Virus record (IMG/VR): IMGVR_UViG_2541047691_000016 | From: a virus | Taxonomy: Duplodnaviria; Heunggongvirae; Uroviricota; Caudoviricetes | Strand: one strand, 5' to 3' | DNA length: 39,162 nucleotides | In this document: piece by piece, positions 2,661-35,917 of the stretch | How positions within the stretch are numbered: the first letter of the stretch is position 1 | How the letters are laid out: every line of letters starts with the position of its first letter | Notes under the pieces: model-generated | Told to the model about the DNA's origin: nothing | Databases searched by the model: none | What the model saw: the letters and a program-made list of their open reading frames with translations, nothing else | Made by a program: the position numbers and the translations under genes

Positions 2661-3566
2661 CTATATTTCCAGACACCTGTTATCACTTAACCCATTACTG
2701 GCTTGCTGCCGTAGATATTCCCGTGGCGAGCGATAACCCAGTGCACTATGCGGATGCCATTCGTTATAATGCTCGAACGCCTCTGCAAGGTTCTTTGCTG
2801 CCGTTAACCCGTCTGGTTTGGGCATGACACTGATGTAGTCACGCTTTATCGTTTTCACGAAGCTCTCTGCTATGCCGTTACTCTCCGGACTCCGCACCGC
2901 CGTGCTCTTCGGTTCAAGCCCCAACATCCGGGCAAACTGCCGTGTTTCATTAGCCCGGTAGCATGAACCATTATCCGTCAGCCACTCTACTGGAGACGCC
3001 GGAAGCTCGTTGCCGAAGCGGCGTTCCACCGCTCCCAGCATGACGTCCTGTACTGTTTCACTGTTGAAGCCGCCCGTAGTGACCGCCCAGTGCAGTGCCT
3101 CACGGTCACAGCAGTCCAGCGCGAACGTGACTCGCAGTTTTTCTCCGTTATCACAGCGGAACTCGAACCCGTCAGAGCACCATCGCTGATTACTTTCTTT
3201 CACAGCCACTCTGCCTGTATGTGCCCGTTTCGATGGCGGTACAGCAGGTTTTCGCTCAAGCAACAGCGCATTCTGGCGCATGATCCGGTAAACACGTTTG
3301 GCATTGATCGCAGGCATACCATCAAGTTCTGCCTGTCTGCGAAGCAGCGCCCATACCCGACGATAACCATACGTGGGCAGCTCTCCGATAACATGGTGTA
3401 TACGGAGAAGCACATCCGTATCATCAGTGTGACGACTGCGGCGGCCATCCATCCAGTCATCGGTTCGTCTGAGAATGACGTGCAACTGCGCACGCGACAC
3501 CCGGAGACAACGGCTGACTAAGCTTACTCCCCATCCCCGGGCAATAAGGGCGCGTGCGCTATCCAC
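2661..3566 (-). CDS. insD: IS2 transposase OrfB (InsD, DDE integrase domain)
   Basis: 301-aa ORF recognised as IS2 InsD; overlaps insC as expected for the -1 frameshift fusion. Confidence 0.9.
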
Positions 3567-3889
3567 TTTTTTGCCCGTCCATATTCAACGGCTTCTTTGA
3601 GGAGTTCATTTTCCATCGTTTTCTTGCCGAGCAGGCGCTGGAGTTCTTTAATCTGCTTCATGGCGGCAGCAAGTTCAGAGGCAGGAACAACCTGTTCTCC
3701 GGCGGCGACAGCAGTAAGACTTCCTTCCTGGTATTGCTTACGCCAGAGAAATAACTGGCTGGCTGCTACACCATGTTGCCGGGCAACGAGGGAGACCGTC
3801 ATCCCTGGTTCAAAGCTCTGCTGAACAATTGCGATCTTTTCCTGTGTGGTACGCCGTCTGCGTTTCTCCGGTCCTAAGACATCAATCAT
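3524..3889 (-). CDS. insC: IS2 OrfA (InsC, HTH regulator/transposase N-terminal part)
   Basis: Translation from the ATG at 3889 ([18 protein letters not shown]...) matches IS2 InsC; the ORF-track start at 3934 is an upstream extension. Confidence 0.88.
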
Positions 3890-30830: not shown

Positions 30831-31774
30831 GCAATCCCCCTGTCTGCAAACTTCCCTTCCCGAACTCCCGTTAACGAGTCTTCTCTCAGCAGGTAATCAA
30901 AATCAGCCGTCCAGCCCGTGTCGTTGTCTCCGAAGTAAAACGGCTTGGCCTGATGCACAAACGCCCTGACATACGCTCTGAAACCGTCCACGTTTGGCGT
31001 TTTCAGTTGCGGGATGATTTTCTTCAGGCGGCGTTTTCGTTTCTCGTTGACCGCAACAGCGTGTGGCAGTCTGTCACCGACTTCGGTGTTGTAGGCGTTC
31101 AGGAAGGATTCGTAGTCGATTCGTTCTGCCTTGCGACGTTCAGGTTTAACCTGCCCATCGCCTCCCCCATTGGGGGGTAGGGGGGTATTATTTATATTCT
31201 TGTTAATACCTTCTTGTTCATGATGTGCGGTTGTTTGTGCGGCTTCATGTGCGCTTTCATGTGCGGCATGTACGCTGAAAGCCGCGCTATTGCTGGCTTC
31301 ATCATGTGCGGCATCATGTGCGGTTGTTTGTGCGGCTTCATGTGCGGGTAAATTGTCCATTTTTTGAGCATATTCATGGTAATTTGTGATGGTTATCACA
31401 CGGCCTTTTTGCTTCTCTCCATCAATGGAGATCATCCCCTCTTTCACAAAAACCTGAAGCATCCGCTCAACCTGATCACGGCTTGCTGGCTTGCCATGTC
31501 TGTCGCATAACTGAAGACCTAAATCAGCTGCTGTCACAACCAGTTGACCGGGTTGCAGATGCCATTCATGACCTTTGAAATTCGCTTTGTATGGCTTTCT
31601 GGCGGCATTCAGGAGAAGGTTTTCCCACAGGGTGCGAAGATAAACATCTTTCGCCCATGACTGTTTCAGAATGCTCCGGTACAACGGAATGTAACCAGTT
31701 TTCTGGTTCTCCATCCTGTTGCTCCTGCGCTCGTGTGCGGCGCTGAAATCGTAGATTTTTGCTGTATTGCTCAT
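30827..31774 (-). CDS. Replication initiator (lambda O / P22 gp18-like) with internal origin iterons
   Basis: 315 aa; central [10 protein letters not shown]-type peptide repeats are encoded by DNA iterons; Pro/Gly linker PPNGGGDG. Confidence 0.8.
31219..31349. repeat. Candidate replication origin: about 6 copies of (C)ATGTGCGG, including a 31-bp direct repeat at 31223-31253 and 31316-31346, flanked by AT-rich tracts
   Basis: Direct repeats read in the sequence inside the initiator gene, as for lambda ori inside O. Confidence 0.65.
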
Positions 31775-31776
31775 AA

Positions 31777-32049
31777 CTACCTGCCTTGACGAAAGACCTT
31801 AAGAACATCGTTAAACTGACTTACGGATATGTCTTCTTTGAGAAGCTTTTCCAGAAATGCGTTTGGAATGAACGTATATCCCTCCTCTTTTGGTAGAGAC
31901 GGGAGCAACGCCCTCGCCTCAGCCTTCAGAAGCTCCGTTCTGGCAACTTTCACAAAAGAGATTTGAGTTCTTTCATCAATGGAACGAAGGAAGCGCAAAC
32001 GCTTAGCTTCTTTGTGTGTATCAGGTGGATTAAAGCCTTTGTTTCGCAT
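31777..32049 (-). CDS. Hypothetical protein (90 aa) between cII and the initiator gene
   Basis: ATG at 32049 with GAGG RBS; the ORF-track extension to 32322 overlaps cII in another frame and is rejected. Confidence 0.5.
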   Translation of the reverse strand: MRNKGFNPPDTHKEAKRLRFLRSIDERTQISFVKVARTELLKAEARALLPSLPKEEGYTFIPNAFLEKLLKEDISVSQFNDVLKVFRQGR

Positions 32050-32071
32050 ATAATTACCTCGTTGGATGTTG

Positions 32072-32365
32072 TTAAAATTCCATTTGTATTTGATCAGAAC
32101 GCTCGGTTGCCGCCGGGCGTTTTTTATTGGTGAGAATCGAAGCAACTTGTCGTGCCAATCGAGCCATGTCGTCGTCGACAACACCCCATTCAAGAACAGC
32201 AAGCAGCATTGAGAACTTTGGAATCCAGTCCCTCTTCCACCTGCTGATCTGCGACTTATCAACGCCCACAGCTTCCGCTGTCTTCTCAGTTCCAAGCATT
32301 GCGATTTTGTTAAGCAACGCACTCTCGATTCTTAGAGCCTCGTTGCGTTTGTTTGCACGAACCAT
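32072..32365 (-). CDS. cII: Transcriptional activator CII (lambda-type)
   Basis: MVRANKRNEALRIESALLNKIAMLGTEKTAEAVGVDKSQISRWKRDWIPKFSMLLAVLEWGVV... near-identical to lambda CII as recalled; start at 32365. Confidence 0.92.
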   Translation of the reverse strand: MVRANKRNEALRIESALLNKIAMLGTEKTAEAVGVDKSQISRWKRDWIPKFSMLLAVLEWGVVDDDMARLARQVASILTNKKRPAATERSDQIQMEF

Positions 32366-32424
32366 ATGTAAGTATTTCCTTAACAAATAAGAAGTTATGC
32401 GCATCAACTTATGCGCGTTGTATT

Positions 32425-32466
32425 CCCGCATTTCGGCGGGAATGAGGACCATGACTGTTAAAGAGC
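32425..32466 (-). promoter_or_regulatory. nutR (boxA GCTCTTTAA plus boxB hairpin CCCGC-CGAAAU-GCGGG)
   Basis: Between cro and cII on the minus strand; the same boxA/boxB pair recurs in the PL leader. Confidence 0.7.
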
Positions 32467-32473
32467 AATTTGC

Positions 32474-32659
32474 TTATGCCGCTTTGCGGTAAGCGCTTTC
32501 TTGATACTTCAGGGCGCCAGCTGTAACGACTTCCAGTCGATAGGCGTCTTTCTCTGGGATGACTTCCTTCCACTGAGAGACTGCTGCGTCGCTAATGCCT
32601 AACGCTTTAGCTACAGCACGCTGGGTTCCGAAGTGGTCGATAACATCTTTCTTGTACAT
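32474..32659 (-). CDS. cro: Cro repressor (P22-type)
   Basis: MYKKDVIDHFGTQRAVAKALGISDAAVSQWKEVIPEKDAYRLE... resembles P22 Cro. Confidence 0.92.
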   Translation of the reverse strand: MYKKDVIDHFGTQRAVAKALGISDAAVSQWKEVIPEKDAYRLEVVTAGALKYQESAYRKAA

Positions 32660-32672
32660 AGACTCGCTCCGA

Positions 32673-32739
32673 AATTAAAGAACACTTAAATTATCCACTA
32701 AAGGAATCTTAAGTCAAGTTTATTTAAGATGTCTTAACT
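32673..32739. promoter_or_regulatory. OR operator cluster with PR/PRM (three P22-type 18-bp operators)
   Basis: ATTTAAGTGTTCTTTAAT-type sites at about 32674-32691, 32697-32714 and 32722-32739, between divergent cro and c2. Confidence 0.75.
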
Positions 32740-33390
32740 ATGAAAACTCAATTGATGGGAGAGCGCATTCGCGCTCGGAGAAAAGAACTCAAGATCAGGC
32801 AGGCCGCACTTGGAAAGATGGTCGGCGTGTCTAATGTTGCCATATCTCAGTGGGAACGCTCTGAGACAGAGCCAAATGGAGAGAATCTTCTCGCCCTGGC
32901 TAATGCGTTGAAGTGTTCCCCTGACTATCTGATGAAAGGAGAGGAAAGTCTTTCAAACATTGCCTATCACAGTAGGCATGATCCAAGAGGGTCATACCCT
33001 CTGATTAGCTGGGTGAGCGCAGGATGCTGGATGGAAGCTGTAGAACCATATCATAAGCGTGCAATAGATAACTGGTACGATACAACCGTAGACTGTTCAG
33101 AAGATTCGTTTTGGTTGGACGTGAAGGGAGACTCAATGACGGCTCCGGCCGGTCTCAGTATCCCTGAAGGAATGATAATACTCGTCGATCCTGAAGTAGA
33201 GCCGCGTAACGGGAAACTGGTAGTTGCAAAGCTCGAAGGAGAAAACGAGGCAACTTTCAAGAAGTTAGTTATTGATGCAGGCAGGAAGTTTCTAAAACCA
33301 CTTAACCCACAATATCCGATGATCGAGATCAACGGAAACTGCAAAATCATCGGCGTAGTTGTCGATGCAAAACTAGCAAACCTTCCATAA
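32740..33390 (+). CDS. c2: C2 repressor (P22-type CI homologue, 216 aa)
   Basis: MKTQLMGERIRARRKELKIRQAALGKMVGVSNVAISQWERSETEPNGENLLAL... resembles P22 C2, including the LexA-like C-terminal domain. Confidence 0.93.
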   Translation: MKTQLMGERIRARRKELKIRQAALGKMVGVSNVAISQWERSETEPNGENLLALANALKCSPDYLMKGEESLSNIAYHSRHDPRGSYPLISWVSAGCWMEAVEPYHKRAIDNWYDTTVDCSEDSFWLDVKGDSMTAPAGLSIPEGMIILVDPEVEPRNGKLVVAKLEGENEATFKKLVIDAGRKFLKPLNPQYPMIEINGNCKIIGVVVDAKLANLP

Positions 33391-33414
33391 GGGGGCATTC
33401 GCCCCTTTTTTTTT
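33391..33414 (+). terminator. Intrinsic terminator downstream of c2
   Basis: GGGGC-AUUC-GCCCC hairpin followed by U9. Confidence 0.75.
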
Positions 33415-33437
33415 ATTTCCTTTAAAAATCAAAGCCA

Positions 33438-33511
33438 AACTTAAGTTACGAAAGAAAATTTAAGTTTTCTTCAAAAATGCTCTTGACCATTAATTAAAGA
33501 GATCTTAAATT
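33438..33511 (+). promoter_or_regulatory. OL operators and PL promoter (-35 TTGACC 33483-33488, -10 TAAATT 33506-33511)
   Basis: P22-type operator half-sites (ATTTAAG...CTTTAAT) overlapping the promoter hexamers. Confidence 0.6.
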
Positions 33512-33546
33512 TAAGCCATCAGCAGGACGCTGGAAGCCAAACGGAA

Positions 33547-33586
33547 CAGATTGGCAGGCTCTTTAACATTGATGGGATTGTCCCGC
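33547..33586 (+). promoter_or_regulatory. nutL (boxA GCTCTTTAA 33547-33555; boxB CCCGCCGAAATGCGGG 33571-33586)
   Basis: Identical boxA/boxB pair to nutR, located in the PL leader upstream of the N-like gene. Confidence 0.7.
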
Positions 33587-33911
33587 CGAAATGCGGGAAC
33601 CAAAGAGTAGTTGGCTTTGGGGTGACGTGAAGTGCAGCTGCACGACGGCAACCGGAAGATAAGCACCCGGCGCGTCACCGCCAAAGTCAATTCCATAGGC
33701 GTTATGCAGCCGCCACCATATTCAAGAAAGCTGCACAAGAGGTAGGAGGATTTATGTGAATGCATAACTTCAAAACCGAGGTTAATTAAATCTCTCGATC
33801 CGAGCATCGACCTATTAGGTGGCGAGATGCTCTTTCTGCCCCTCAGTTCGAGGGGCCAGAAACCACTTTGCAATCACTATCAATTCCAAAGTTGTTTCAT
33901 CGGAGGTCAAC

Positions 33912-34211
33912 ATGACAGTAGTCATTACATATCTGGCTGACGATAACGCCAGAAATCGCCGCAGAGCACGCAGACAGGCTCAACGTGAACAGGCGATGCA
34001 AGAACAGCGACTGGCGCGAAAAATTGCGCTAAAGCTCTCTGGTTGCGTCAGAGCGGATAAAGCAGCATCACTCGGAATCCTTCGCTGCAAGAAGGCAGAT
34101 GAAGTCGAGAGTAAACAGAATCGTATTTACTACCGCAAGCCACGCAGTGAAATGGGTGTGACTTGTGTTGGTCGCCAGAAAATGAAATTAGGCAGCAAAC
34201 CACTTATTTGA
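33912..34211 (+). CDS. N: N-like transcription antiterminator (99 aa) with an arginine-rich motif
   Basis: ATG at 33912 with GGAGG RBS; N-terminal DNARNRRRARRQAQREQ; first gene of the PL operon after nutL; the ORF-track start at 33819 is an extension. Confidence 0.75.
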   Translation: MTVVITYLADDNARNRRRARRQAQREQAMQEQRLARKIALKLSGCVRADKAASLGILRCKKADEVESKQNRIYYRKPRSEMGVTCVGRQKMKLGSKPLI

Positions 34212-34219
34212 GGTGATAT

Positions 34220-34690
34220 ATGACAAAATCATGGAGCGTACCTTTTCCTGAATCAGAAACTGAACATGATGGAATGCCTGTTTTCTGGAGATTCCAAGCG
34301 ACAGTTGAAGAAGATGGAATCAAAATATTCGCACTTCAATATATAGCTTTTCATCAGACAGAGCATTATGCATGGTTGGTTCCTGCGCATTGGATTGTTA
34401 ATTTTAAACCAGCACCAAATCAGTGGTTACAGGAATGGAAACAAAGGAGAAATAGATATGCAATTAAGAAAGTAGCAAAAAATGCAGAAAGATCTTTTGC
34501 ATTCCCGACGAAGAAACTTGCCATTGAAAGTTTATTGCGCCGGAAGAAATACCATTTGATGAGAATCAAACAAGATTTGGCTGTTGTATCAACTCTTGTT
34601 GATGGGATGAAGAATATTGATACATCAACACCAGGTATTGAATATAACTTTGGACACAACCAAGAAACAGAAAACTGGGTGTTTTATTAG
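34220..34690 (+). CDS. Hypothetical protein (156 aa), AT-rich gene between N and tL
   Basis: ORF with lower GC than its neighbours; no family recognised. Confidence 0.55.
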   Translation: MTKSWSVPFPESETEHDGMPVFWRFQATVEEDGIKIFALQYIAFHQTEHYAWLVPAHWIVNFKPAPNQWLQEWKQRRNRYAIKKVAKNAERSFAFPTKKLAIESLLRRKKYHLMRIKQDLAVVSTLVDGMKNIDTSTPGIEYNFGHNQETENWVFY

Positions 34691-34804
34691 TACGAATAAG
34701 CACTGTGTATTCATTCCAACGAGTGAATACACGGAGCAATGTCGCTCGTAACTAAACAGGAGCCGACTTGTTCTGATTATTGGAAATCTTCTTTGCCCTC
34801 CAGT

Positions 34805-34830
34805 GTGAGGGCTTTTTTATATGCATACCA
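34805..34830 (+). terminator. Intrinsic terminator (tL1-like)
   Basis: GCCCUC-CAGUGU-GAGGGC hairpin followed by U6. Confidence 0.7.
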
Positions 34831-34884
34831 ATAACGCTTCACTCGAGGCGTTTTCGTTATGCAATCAAACAGAAGGAGCATCCT

Positions 34885-35055
34885 ATGCAACAGTTCGCTA
34901 TTGCAGGGGCGGCATCGGTTCGCCCTTTCAACCCGATTTTATCGGTACAGCATTCACGAAAAAACATTTTAACCGGAGCAGACTTTAAACAACCAAGAAT
35001 GAAAAGCTTGCTCGAAAAGCTTTGGGATATTTTGAAACAACAAGGCCGTCCATGA
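34885..35055 (+). CDS. Small hypothetical protein (56 aa)
   Basis: ATG at 34885 with AAGGAG RBS; the ORF-track start at 34780 overlaps the terminator and is rejected. Confidence 0.45.
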   Translation: MQQFAIAGAASVRPFNPILSVQHSRKNILTGADFKQPRMKSLLEKLWDILKQQGRP

Positions 35056-35210
35056 GTTTTACGGATAACTGGTCAGACGAAGAATTCATTCGTCAGATAA
35101 AAGAATTAATCGGTAACGAAGGAGATATTCATGTCACTTGCAACCACAGTGAAGGAGAGCAAGTTACAGAGACGCATGTACACGCAGAAAGCTCTCTGGT
35201 ATCGCCATAA
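35052..35210 (+). CDS. Small hypothetical acidic protein (52 aa)
   Basis: ATG overlaps the upstream stop (ATGA coupling). Confidence 0.4.
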   Translation: MSFTDNWSDEEFIRQIKELIGNEGDIHVTCNHSEGEQVTETHVHAESSLVSP

Positions 35211-35311
35211 TGGTGACCGCGAAGGAATGCGGGTATGCCTTAATTTGTCCCGAGTCGAAGTATTAAATCAGCGTTATTTCCTTGGGCCGTGTCCATTCTG
35301 AGAGCAATCAT

Positions 35312-35917
35312 ATGAGCAAAGAATTTTACGCAAGACTGGCAGCTATTCAGGAGAATCTGAACGCGCCAAAGAATCAGTACAACTCATTCGGCAAATATAA
35401 ATACAGAAGCTGCGAAGATATTCTTGAAGGCGTTAAGCCGTTACTGAACGGTCTGTTTTTATCAATCAGCGATGAAGTTGTGTTGATTGGTGATCGGTAT
35501 TACGTGAAAGCCACGGCAACTATTACCGATGGCGAAAACAGTCATACGGCAACCGCTCTTGCACGAGAGGAAGAAAGCAAGAAAGGAATGGATTCTGCAC
35601 AAGTTACGGGAGCTACAAGCTCTTATGCACGCAAGTATTGCCTCAATGGTTTGTTCGGCATTGATGATGCGAAAGATGCAGATACAGACGAGCATAAACA
35701 TCAGCAGAACGCAGCAGCAAAGCAATCAAAACCATCACTTACACCTGAACAGGTTCTAAAAGCATTCACTGACGCAGCAATGCAGAAAAACACCGTAGAA
35801 GAGCTTAAACAGGCGTTCGCCAAAGCGTGGAAGATGCTCGAAGGGACGCCGGAGCAGCACAAAGCGCAGGACGTTTACAACATCAGACGAGACGAATTAG
35901 AAGGGGCAACTGCTTAA
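35312..35917 (+). CDS. erf: Erf single-strand annealing recombinase (P22 Erf-like)
   Basis: MSKEFYARLAAIQENLNAPKNQYNSFGKYKYRSCEDILEGVKPLL... resembles P22 Erf; start at 35312. Confidence 0.92.
   Translation: MSKEFYARLAAIQENLNAPKNQYNSFGKYKYRSCEDILEGVKPLLNGLFLSISDEVVLIGDRYYVKATATITDGENSHTATALAREEESKKGMDSAQVTGATSSYARKYCLNGLFGIDDAKDADTDEHKHQQNAAAKQSKPSLTPEQVLKAFTDAAMQKNTVEELKQAFAKAWKMLEGTPEQHKAQDVYNIRRDELEGATA

Follow-up and report, generated by a model that had tools for sequence, protein, structure and literature searches.

The two boxA–boxB elements described here are very probably nutL and nutR of an N antitermination system of the lambda type, belonging to the HK620/CUS-3 sequence class, in which the arginine-rich motif (ARM) of N and the boxB hairpins appear to have been exchanged as a set. 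The pair itself is already known: it has been annotated in HK620 since 2001, is common in E. coli and looks ordinary in its mechanism.

The DNA analyzed, called the window below, is the whole 39,162-nucleotide viral record IMGVR_UViG_2541047691_000016. It represents a CUS-3-like P22-type (Lederbergvirus) prophage, whose virion genes are 99.9% and whose immunity region is 97.5% identical to those of CUS-3; the immunity region is also ~87% identical to that of phage 21.

Immunity Region and nut Sites

Based on open reading frames and Pfam matches, the gene order is cII-cro-cI-N, the standard lambdoid immunity layout, in the orientation opposite to the lambda map. The cI gene (32740..33390, plus strand) encodes a phage-21-like repressor, recognized by its Pfam HTH_3 and Peptidase_S24 domains and by alignment with phage 21, and cro (32474..32659, minus strand) belongs to the P22_Cro family. 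The first gene past nutR and the presumed tR1 is cII (32072..32368, minus strand; Pfam Phage_CII, E = 5e-48), with the genes for O and a DnaB-type helicase located farther along the same strand. On the other side, a gene for an N antiterminator of 99 amino acids (33912..34211, plus strand) was assigned by homology and by its location downstream of PL and nutL. A scan for sigma-70-like consensus sequences yielded candidates for both early promoters at the expected positions, namely PR (TTGACT-16-GATAAT, 32690..32717, minus strand) and PL (TTGACC-17-TAAATT, 33483..33511, plus strand), the latter corresponding to the annotated pL region of phage 21.

When the 39 kb window was searched for the exact pattern GCTCTTTAA-N(10-25)-CCCGCCGAAATGCGGG, using 100 shuffles as a control, we obtained two matches, at 32425-32466 on the minus strand and at 33558-33597 on the plus strand, with zero expected from the shuffles. 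A first-pass annotation, made by reading the sequence, had indeed proposed that the same boxA and the same boxB hairpin occur twice. Its coordinates for nutR were exact, but those for nutL (33547-33586) were 11 nt too far to the left, so as to span boxA and just the first 5 nt of boxB. It had also placed nutR in the PR leader, but, as in lambda, the site follows cro and precedes cII. Each early transcript has one nut site, that of the PL transcript (nutL) being upstream of N, and no third copy of the boxB hairpin was found in the window, even allowing three mismatches.

At both sites, boxA (GCTCTTTAA; 33558..33566, plus strand, in nutL and 32458..32466, minus strand, in nutR) is followed 15–17 nt farther on by the hairpin CCCGC-CGAAAU-GCGGG. 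The boxB of nutL is UCCCGC-CGAAAU-GCGGGA (33581..33598, plus strand) and that of nutR is AUUCCCGC-CGAAAU-GCGGGAAU (32422..32443, minus strand), both being identical to the corresponding annotated sites of HK620. The first 8 nt of boxA form the sequence, GCTCTTTA, that is annotated in phage 21 as boxA-L and as boxA-R. The boxA of the window is of the rrn type, as opposed to CGCTCTTA in lambda, and matches the rrn boxA, UGCUCUUUAACAA, as well as the NusB/NusE-binding consensus.

It is hardly credible that N does not target the two hairpins, and that they are chance palindromes, terminators or sites for some other factor. Such a reading would agree with the outcome of an Rfam scan of positions 31500-35500, in which no family matched at E <= 1 (Rfam holds no curated boxB/nut family). 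However, the hairpins are identical copies found at a fixed distance after boxA, one per early operon, in a number not expected by chance, and neither of them is followed by a U-tract. Furthermore, their positions are exactly those of the annotated boxB elements of phage 21 and HK620, and they are co-inherited with one type of ARM (see below).

A structured boxA–boxB spacer, as described for H-19B, was considered and discarded, given that the spacer folds no better than shuffled sequences (z = -0.35 for nutL and -1.4 for nutR). A long hairpin, sharing ~80% identity with the leader of phage 21, is predicted in the N leader (33609..33692, plus strand; z = -4.0 for the whole leader). It starts within the element GGCUUUGGGGUG, found after nutL, which we take to resemble lambda boxC, and presumably sits where the RNase III stem of the lambda N leader does.

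Two intrinsic-terminator-like hairpins (34795-34812 and 34833-34852, plus strand) occur downstream of N and of the next open reading frame; within the PL operon, these are likely to be antitermination targets of the tL1 type. The same scan, which covered intrinsic terminators, found none in the interval from nutR to cII, where tR1 would be Rho-dependent, as it is annotated in the HK620 record.

Folding and Covariation of the boxB Hairpin

ViennaRNA folded both boxB elements into a G+C-rich stem of 5–8 bp capped by the 6-nt loop CGAAAU; the 20-mer UUCCCGCCGAAAUGCGGGAA had a folding energy of -10.7 kcal/mol (z = -3.0). Comparison of related loci attested to the stem, with compensatory changes in four of the seven pairs (for example, from CCCGC/GCGGG to UCCAC/GUGGA) and with 95% of stem cells paired, as against 38–67% in a control where the 3' arm was slid. 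No shuffle attained a covariation score as high as that observed, in a sample that is small and comprises only about nine distinct hairpin sequences. A scan of metagenomes and two additional viral scans, aimed at a wider diversity of boxB, returned almost exclusively the identical hairpin.

The loop was CGAAAU at 328 of 330 sites. The remaining variants, UGAAAU and CGUAAU, both belong to a single lineage (L094), which also shows the ARM changes N12K and A28V, a single anecdote. The resulting consensus, Y-GNRA-U, comprises a pyrimidine, a GNRA sequence (GAAA, or GUAA in one relative) and an invariant U. Given this conservation and the analogy with the boxB of phage 21 and the boxB-right of P22, we infer that the most appropriate reading of the hairpin is that of a canonical GNRA tetraloop resting on a non-Watson–Crick pyrimidine–U flank, on top of the G+C-rich stem. 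In phage 21, the CUAACC hexaloop adopts a GNRA-like UAAC fold flanked by a cis-Watson–Crick C–C pair (PDB 1NYB; PMC12550061), so that its six loop nucleotides, too, amount to a four-base fold with a non-canonical pyrimidine pair at its base. Similarly, a 6C-12C flank surrounds the GACAA loop in P22 boxB-right (PMC6023938).

In light of these precedents, the term hexaloop, used in the first-pass annotation to set this boxB apart from the pentaloops of lambda and P22, is only partly apt. The loop does have 6 nt, but this is no departure from the known paradigms, as phage 21 has a hexaloop in its boxB too, and mismatch-flanked GNRA tetraloop is the better description of the element. Its form, a true GNRA on a Y–U flank, would be intermediate between the structural solutions of P22 and phage 21.

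We also considered a lambda/P22-like pentaloop, GAAAU, closed by a C6–G12 pair, with C5 bulged out of the stem. Either C5 or C6 can pair with G12, leaving the number of Watson–Crick pairs unchanged, and the 5' flanking U of the variant lineage could still form a wobble pair with G12. However, nearest-neighbor folding favors the unbulged stem of 5–8 bp with the 6-nt loop, and in a GAAAU loop the terminal A needed for the GNRA-like sheared G–A pair would be missing. In the solved natural examples with pyrimidine flanks, moreover, the C–C flanks of phage 21 and of P22 boxB-right are non-canonical pairs on a continuous stem (PMC12550061, PMC6023938). Such a bulged structure is therefore very unlikely.

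The N Protein and Its Arginine-Rich Motif

The N protein of the window is 98% identical to that of CUS-3 and 68% identical to that of phage 21. The similarity to the latter is unevenly distributed: residues 34–99 are nearly identical to phage 21 N, but residues 1–33 are replaced. Residues 63–99 align with residues 75–110 of lambda N in the structure of the antitermination complex (PDB 6GOV; E = 0.0012). Against the Pfam family N_peptide (PF25694), the protein scores 19.4 bits, under the gathering cutoff of 27.9; because the protein shares 68% of its residues with phage 21 N, we attribute this sub-threshold score to the limited breadth of the model. This N is short and disordered, a peptide that depends on RNA.

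The ARM is encoded at 33945..33983 on the plus strand (NARNRRRARRQAQ, residues 12–24), and its residues are invariant or nearly so in homologues. It keeps the frame A-x-x-R-R-x-x-R-R, has a C-terminal half of its own and contains no tryptophan. Sequence comparison agreed with the first-pass annotation in calling this ARM distinct, as it is neither that of lambda, nor that of P22, nor that of phage 21.

Comparison with Phage 21

A windowed DNA alignment of the window with phage 21 revealed a strongly discontinuous pattern. Identity is 85–100% over cro and cI, the operators with PL and PR, and the two boxA elements, but it falls to 37% in the boxB patch of nutR and to 47% in that of nutL, to rise again to ~80% in the leader immediately 3' of the nutL boxB. 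Likewise, the ARM codons are 33–57% identical to phage 21, as against 93–100% for the remainder of N. Conserved sequence separates the nutL boxB patch from the ARM patch.

On this comparative evidence, three short patches (boxB-right, boxB-left and ARM) appear to have been exchanged, as a specificity cassette, onto an immunity region that otherwise shares with phage 21 a common scaffold made of cro, cI, the operators, boxA, the leader and N residues 34–99. The case, of modest biological importance, cleanly illustrates how antitermination specificity may change naturally among lambdoid phages, through co-swapping of three patches.

Within the patches, the two phages differ. The annotated boxB elements of phage 21 are UCUCAAC-CUAACC-GUUGAGA and UUCACCU-CUAACC-GGGUGAG, whose stems are unrelated to those of the window and whose loop core, UAAC, is a U-turn/UMAC mimic of the GNRA fold, as opposed to the genuine GAAA of the window. 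Phage 21 has the ARM GTAKSRYKARRAELIAERR, where the window has DDNARNRRRARRQAQREQA. Hence the window falls outside the phage 21 class, defined by ARM GTAKSRYKARRAELIAERR together with a CUAACC boxB, and identity with this already characterized pair, a possibility raised in the first-pass annotation, did not emerge from the comparison.

Co-Inheritance of ARM and boxB

We gathered ~200 related loci, using protein-anchored contigs in addition to IMG/VR, GTDB genomes and metagenomes. A Y-GNRA-U boxB was found after boxA at nutL in 166 of the 167 loci with the window's ARM, although this figure is no count of independent events, the loci being mostly near-identical prophages. The hairpin was present at both sites in 147 loci, and where it was not, nutR lay off the contig. 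The sole exception among the 167 is a contig of 1.1 kb with a 1-nt insertion.

What makes the co-inheritance convincing, despite the near-identity of so many prophages, is the mosaic nature of the contexts in which the pair occurs. The N C-terminus is of the lambda/phage-21 type in 119 of the 167 loci and of the P22/H-19B type in 27, and at least two further types are found; the same ARM and boxB also occur alongside different repressors. Other ARM types occur with their own loops. Those of the P22 type were accompanied by GACAA loops in 8/8 loci and those of the phage 21 type by CUAACC in 8/8 loci, some of which have another C-terminus. A lambda-type ARM occurred in two loci (L087 and L168), both with a lambda boxB, the loop being GAAGA in one of them.

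Taken together, these data provide good support for the view that the ARM and both boxB elements are co-inherited as one separate module. The first-pass annotation had suggested an N/boxB specificity pair that differs from the paradigms of lambda, P22 and phage 21, and a separate class is indeed what the loci indicate; its novelty, in contrast, is contradicted by the HK620 annotation. As for binding itself, we infer from the co-inheritance that the specificity would differ from those of the paradigms.

The common ARM variant A13T (cluster P0026, 454 members) was considered as a possible case of altered boxB, but the boxB proved to be unaltered. Two of the three A13T loci shown look defective, with a truncated cI (and, in one, also a truncated cII), so that the variant is uninformative.

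Relationship to the P22 and Lambda Pairs

Judging from the alignments, the nearest relative of the window's ARM/boxB is the P22 pair, with the boxB closest to P22 boxB-right; the two systems would share their mode of action. The boxB elements of P22 gp24 (N) are GCGCU-GACAA-AGCGC on the left and ACCGC-C-GACAA-C-GCGGU on the right, and the P22-type loci that we surveyed carry the boxB-right ACCGC-CGACAAC-GCGGT. Common to P22 boxB-right and the window are the CCGC/GCGG stem, the 5' flanking C and a pyrimidine–pyrimidine flank around a GNRA-type loop. The proteins have in common their N-terminus (MTVITY...) and an ARM core, NA(K/R)(T/N)RRxxRR, and an alignment of the N-terminal regions gave 12/29 residues identical to P22-type N, the top score among the comparators.

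The differences are just as clear. The window reads MTVVITY...NARNRRRARR, as compared to MTVIVY...NAKTRRHERR in P22-type N, with Arg in place of the P22 His, and the C-terminal halves of the two ARMs are unrelated (QAQREQAMQ versus RKLAIERD). With respect to P22 boxB-right, the loop of the window is devoid of the looped-out C and has U instead of C on the 3' flank. The window thus does not belong to the P22 class (ARM GNAKTRRHERRRKLAIER and GACAA pentaloop); it is related, not identical.

These resemblances raise the question of whether the sites, albeit real nut sites, represent just a drifted sub-type of P22, with mutual cross-recognition by P22 gp24 and perhaps by lambda N. The MTVVITY and ARM-core similarity, the CCGC-C...GCGG stem and 5' flank, and a loop separated from that of P22 by only the lost looped-out C and the C-to-U change on the 3' flank would all be in keeping with this possibility. 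Cocozaki et al. (2008) are said to have found that what P22 N requires is chiefly a GNRA-like loop and that some hexaloops keep moderate activity, which would also favor it; on the other hand, the same authors reportedly observed that P22 N strongly prefers U:A or A:U beside the loop, a feature absent in the window.

Against a simple drift from P22, all the natural loci examined pair the P22-type ARM with GACAA and the window's ARM with Y-GNRA-U, and this pairing holds even where the N C-terminus is P22-like. In addition, the looped-out C of the P22 pentaloop contacts a His and an Arg of the peptide (PMC12550061), and the window lacks both the looped-out C and the His. On balance, we consider cross-recognition of this kind to be rather unlikely.

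The mechanism and the layout would be those of lambda. Both systems have boxA, boxB and a boxC-like element, N is the first gene of the PL transcript, and nutR lies in the same intergenic position. The two ARMs have a common frame, A-x-x-R-R-R-x-R-R, and the C-terminal segment of N that binds RNA polymerase is homologous. In the lambda boxB, GCCCU-GAARA-AGGGC, a U–A pair closes a pentaloop whose fourth base is extruded, and Trp18 of N stacks on the loop. In the window, by contrast, there is neither a Trp nor an extra loop base, which places it outside the lambda class (ARM MDAQTRRRERRAEKQAQW and a GAAAA/GAAGA pentaloop closed by U–A).

Proposed Mechanism and Specificity

By virtue of homology, the system is expected to work like lambda N. 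The PL and PR transcripts would each present boxA, as a site for NusB/S10, followed by boxB, and Nus factors would presumably be needed. The arginine-rich helix at the N-terminus of N (residues ~10–30) would bind the major groove and the loop of boxB, and the phage-21/lambda-like center and C-terminus of the protein would engage NusA and RNA polymerase. The polymerase so modified may then read through tR1 before cII and through the terminators downstream of N.

It is possible, although we advance the idea only tentatively, that the pair constitutes a fourth, functionally orthogonal natural solution of the N–boxB problem, in which a Trp-less ARM reads a Y–U-closed GNRA without cross-reacting with the lambda, P22 or phage 21 components. 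It is already generally accepted that lambdoid phages possess many N specificities besides the three paradigmatic ones; for epsilon34, for instance, a 'novel BoxB specificity' has been predicted (PMC2629481). Should the pair prove orthogonal to the tethering systems based on lambda N and P22 N, it could provide a useful extra peptide–RNA tag.

HK620 and the Distribution of the Pair

In the HK620 record (GenBank AF335538, 2001; Clark et al. 2001), the sites are annotated as 'nutL; putative N-utilization leftward' and 'nutR'. At both sites boxA, spacer and boxB are identical to those of the window, and the ARM is also the same. The window accordingly carries the features that define the HK620-type class, namely ARM DDNARNRRRARRQAQREQ and (U)CCCGC-CGAAAU-GCGGG(A) at both nut sites. 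The surroundings are dissimilar: the repressor and cro of HK620 are different, its N has a C-terminus of the P22/H-19B type (...YAAGYRKSKQLTAR) rather than the phage-21/lambda-type C-terminus of the window (...GRQKMKLGSKPLI), and the N leader of the window contains an insertion of ~205 nt relative to HK620.

A literature search, with key older papers lying outside its reach, returned no paper with this boxB or ARM sequence in its full text, nor any biochemical or structural study of the HK620/CUS-3-type pair. At the sequence level, however, the pair is widespread. We found the same ARM in CUS-3, HK630, HK140, mEp213, IME10, N7, JEP4, ECP1, HZ41, phi296 and a Stx2c phage, and the protein clusters with this N have up to 1223 members.

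The DNA from nutL to the ARM is present in 547 of 5426 complete E. coli genomes (~10%). RefSeq E. coli genomes label N proteins of this type 'hypothetical protein', and this, together with the score below the Pfam threshold, amounts to an annotation gap for a gene carried by about one in ten of the complete genomes. This ARM is also present in Cronobacter and Salmonella relatives.

N Leader

Downstream of nutL, the N leader is predicted to form a long, stable hairpin (33609-33692) that starts in the boxC-like GGCUUUGGGGUG and is about 80% conserved with respect to phage 21, the folding z-score predicted for the leader as a whole being -4.0. This hairpin occupies the same position as the RNase III processing stem of the lambda N leader.

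When compared with phage 21 and HK620, the leader also contained an insertion of about 205 nt (33690-33895), lying between the long hairpin and the ribosome-binding site of N. In the phage collection this insertion was matched only in HK140 (92%) and CUS-3 (80%), and the CUS-3 copy falls within an annotated feature termed "bsq5 boundary sequence". Two more hairpins were predicted inside the insertion, whose ORFs are all tiny. Such an insertion would set the N start apart from nutL and the leader stem. Lambda N autoregulates its own translation, and the spacing may matter if the N protein encoded here behaves in a lambda-like manner.

Variation of boxB and N among Related Loci

Among the related loci compared, changed boxB loop bases were confined to one lineage, represented by the metagenome scaffold L094, where the loop reads UGAAAU in nutL and CGUAAU in nutR. 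The N protein of this scaffold (P0111) carries the substitutions N12K and A28V in its arginine-rich motif (ARM); the loop and ARM changes may represent protein–RNA co-variation, in a single case.

Another N variant, P0026, is very common (a cluster of 454 members), and is characterized by the ARM substitution A13T and an altered C-terminus, ...RGKSIPAYYD. In two E. coli contigs encoding it, L202 and L203, the nut sites were unchanged and the adjoining cI was truncated to 119 aa; in L202, cII was truncated as well (42 aa). The element bearing P0026 is probably a widespread defective prophage.

Some short contigs with lambdoid immunity regions of the E. coli type, and with nut sites of either the window type or the phage 21 type, were found in MAGs assigned to non-enterobacterial taxa, namely L083 and L089 (Segatella copri) and L086 (Oxalobacter). 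Their presence there most likely reflects binning contamination.

Annotation of N and Neighboring Features

The N gene (33912-34211) is labelled "hypothetical protein" in complete RefSeq E. coli genomes, including those of the type strain ATCC 11775 and of S88, and its score lies under the Pfam N_peptide threshold. About 10% of complete E. coli genomes contain this gene, which represents a gap in their annotation. Directly downstream of N, on the plus strand, lies a 156-aa ORF (34220-34690) with no Pfam match; a metagenomic relative, L093, has an ORF of equal length at the corresponding place (3311-3781).

A strong intrinsic terminator (32096-32123, plus strand), with a 12-bp stem and a T-run, lies opposite the 3' terminus of cII on the antisense strand and resembles the terminator of a lambda oop-type antisense RNA. 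Rfam returned no match for this putative RNA in a scan of 31500-35500 (E ≤ 1).

Finally, the O replication gene contains tandem 12-nt repeats similar to TTCATGTGCGG (31217-31359), which are translated as a His/Ala-rich protein repeat and presumably are the origin iterons.
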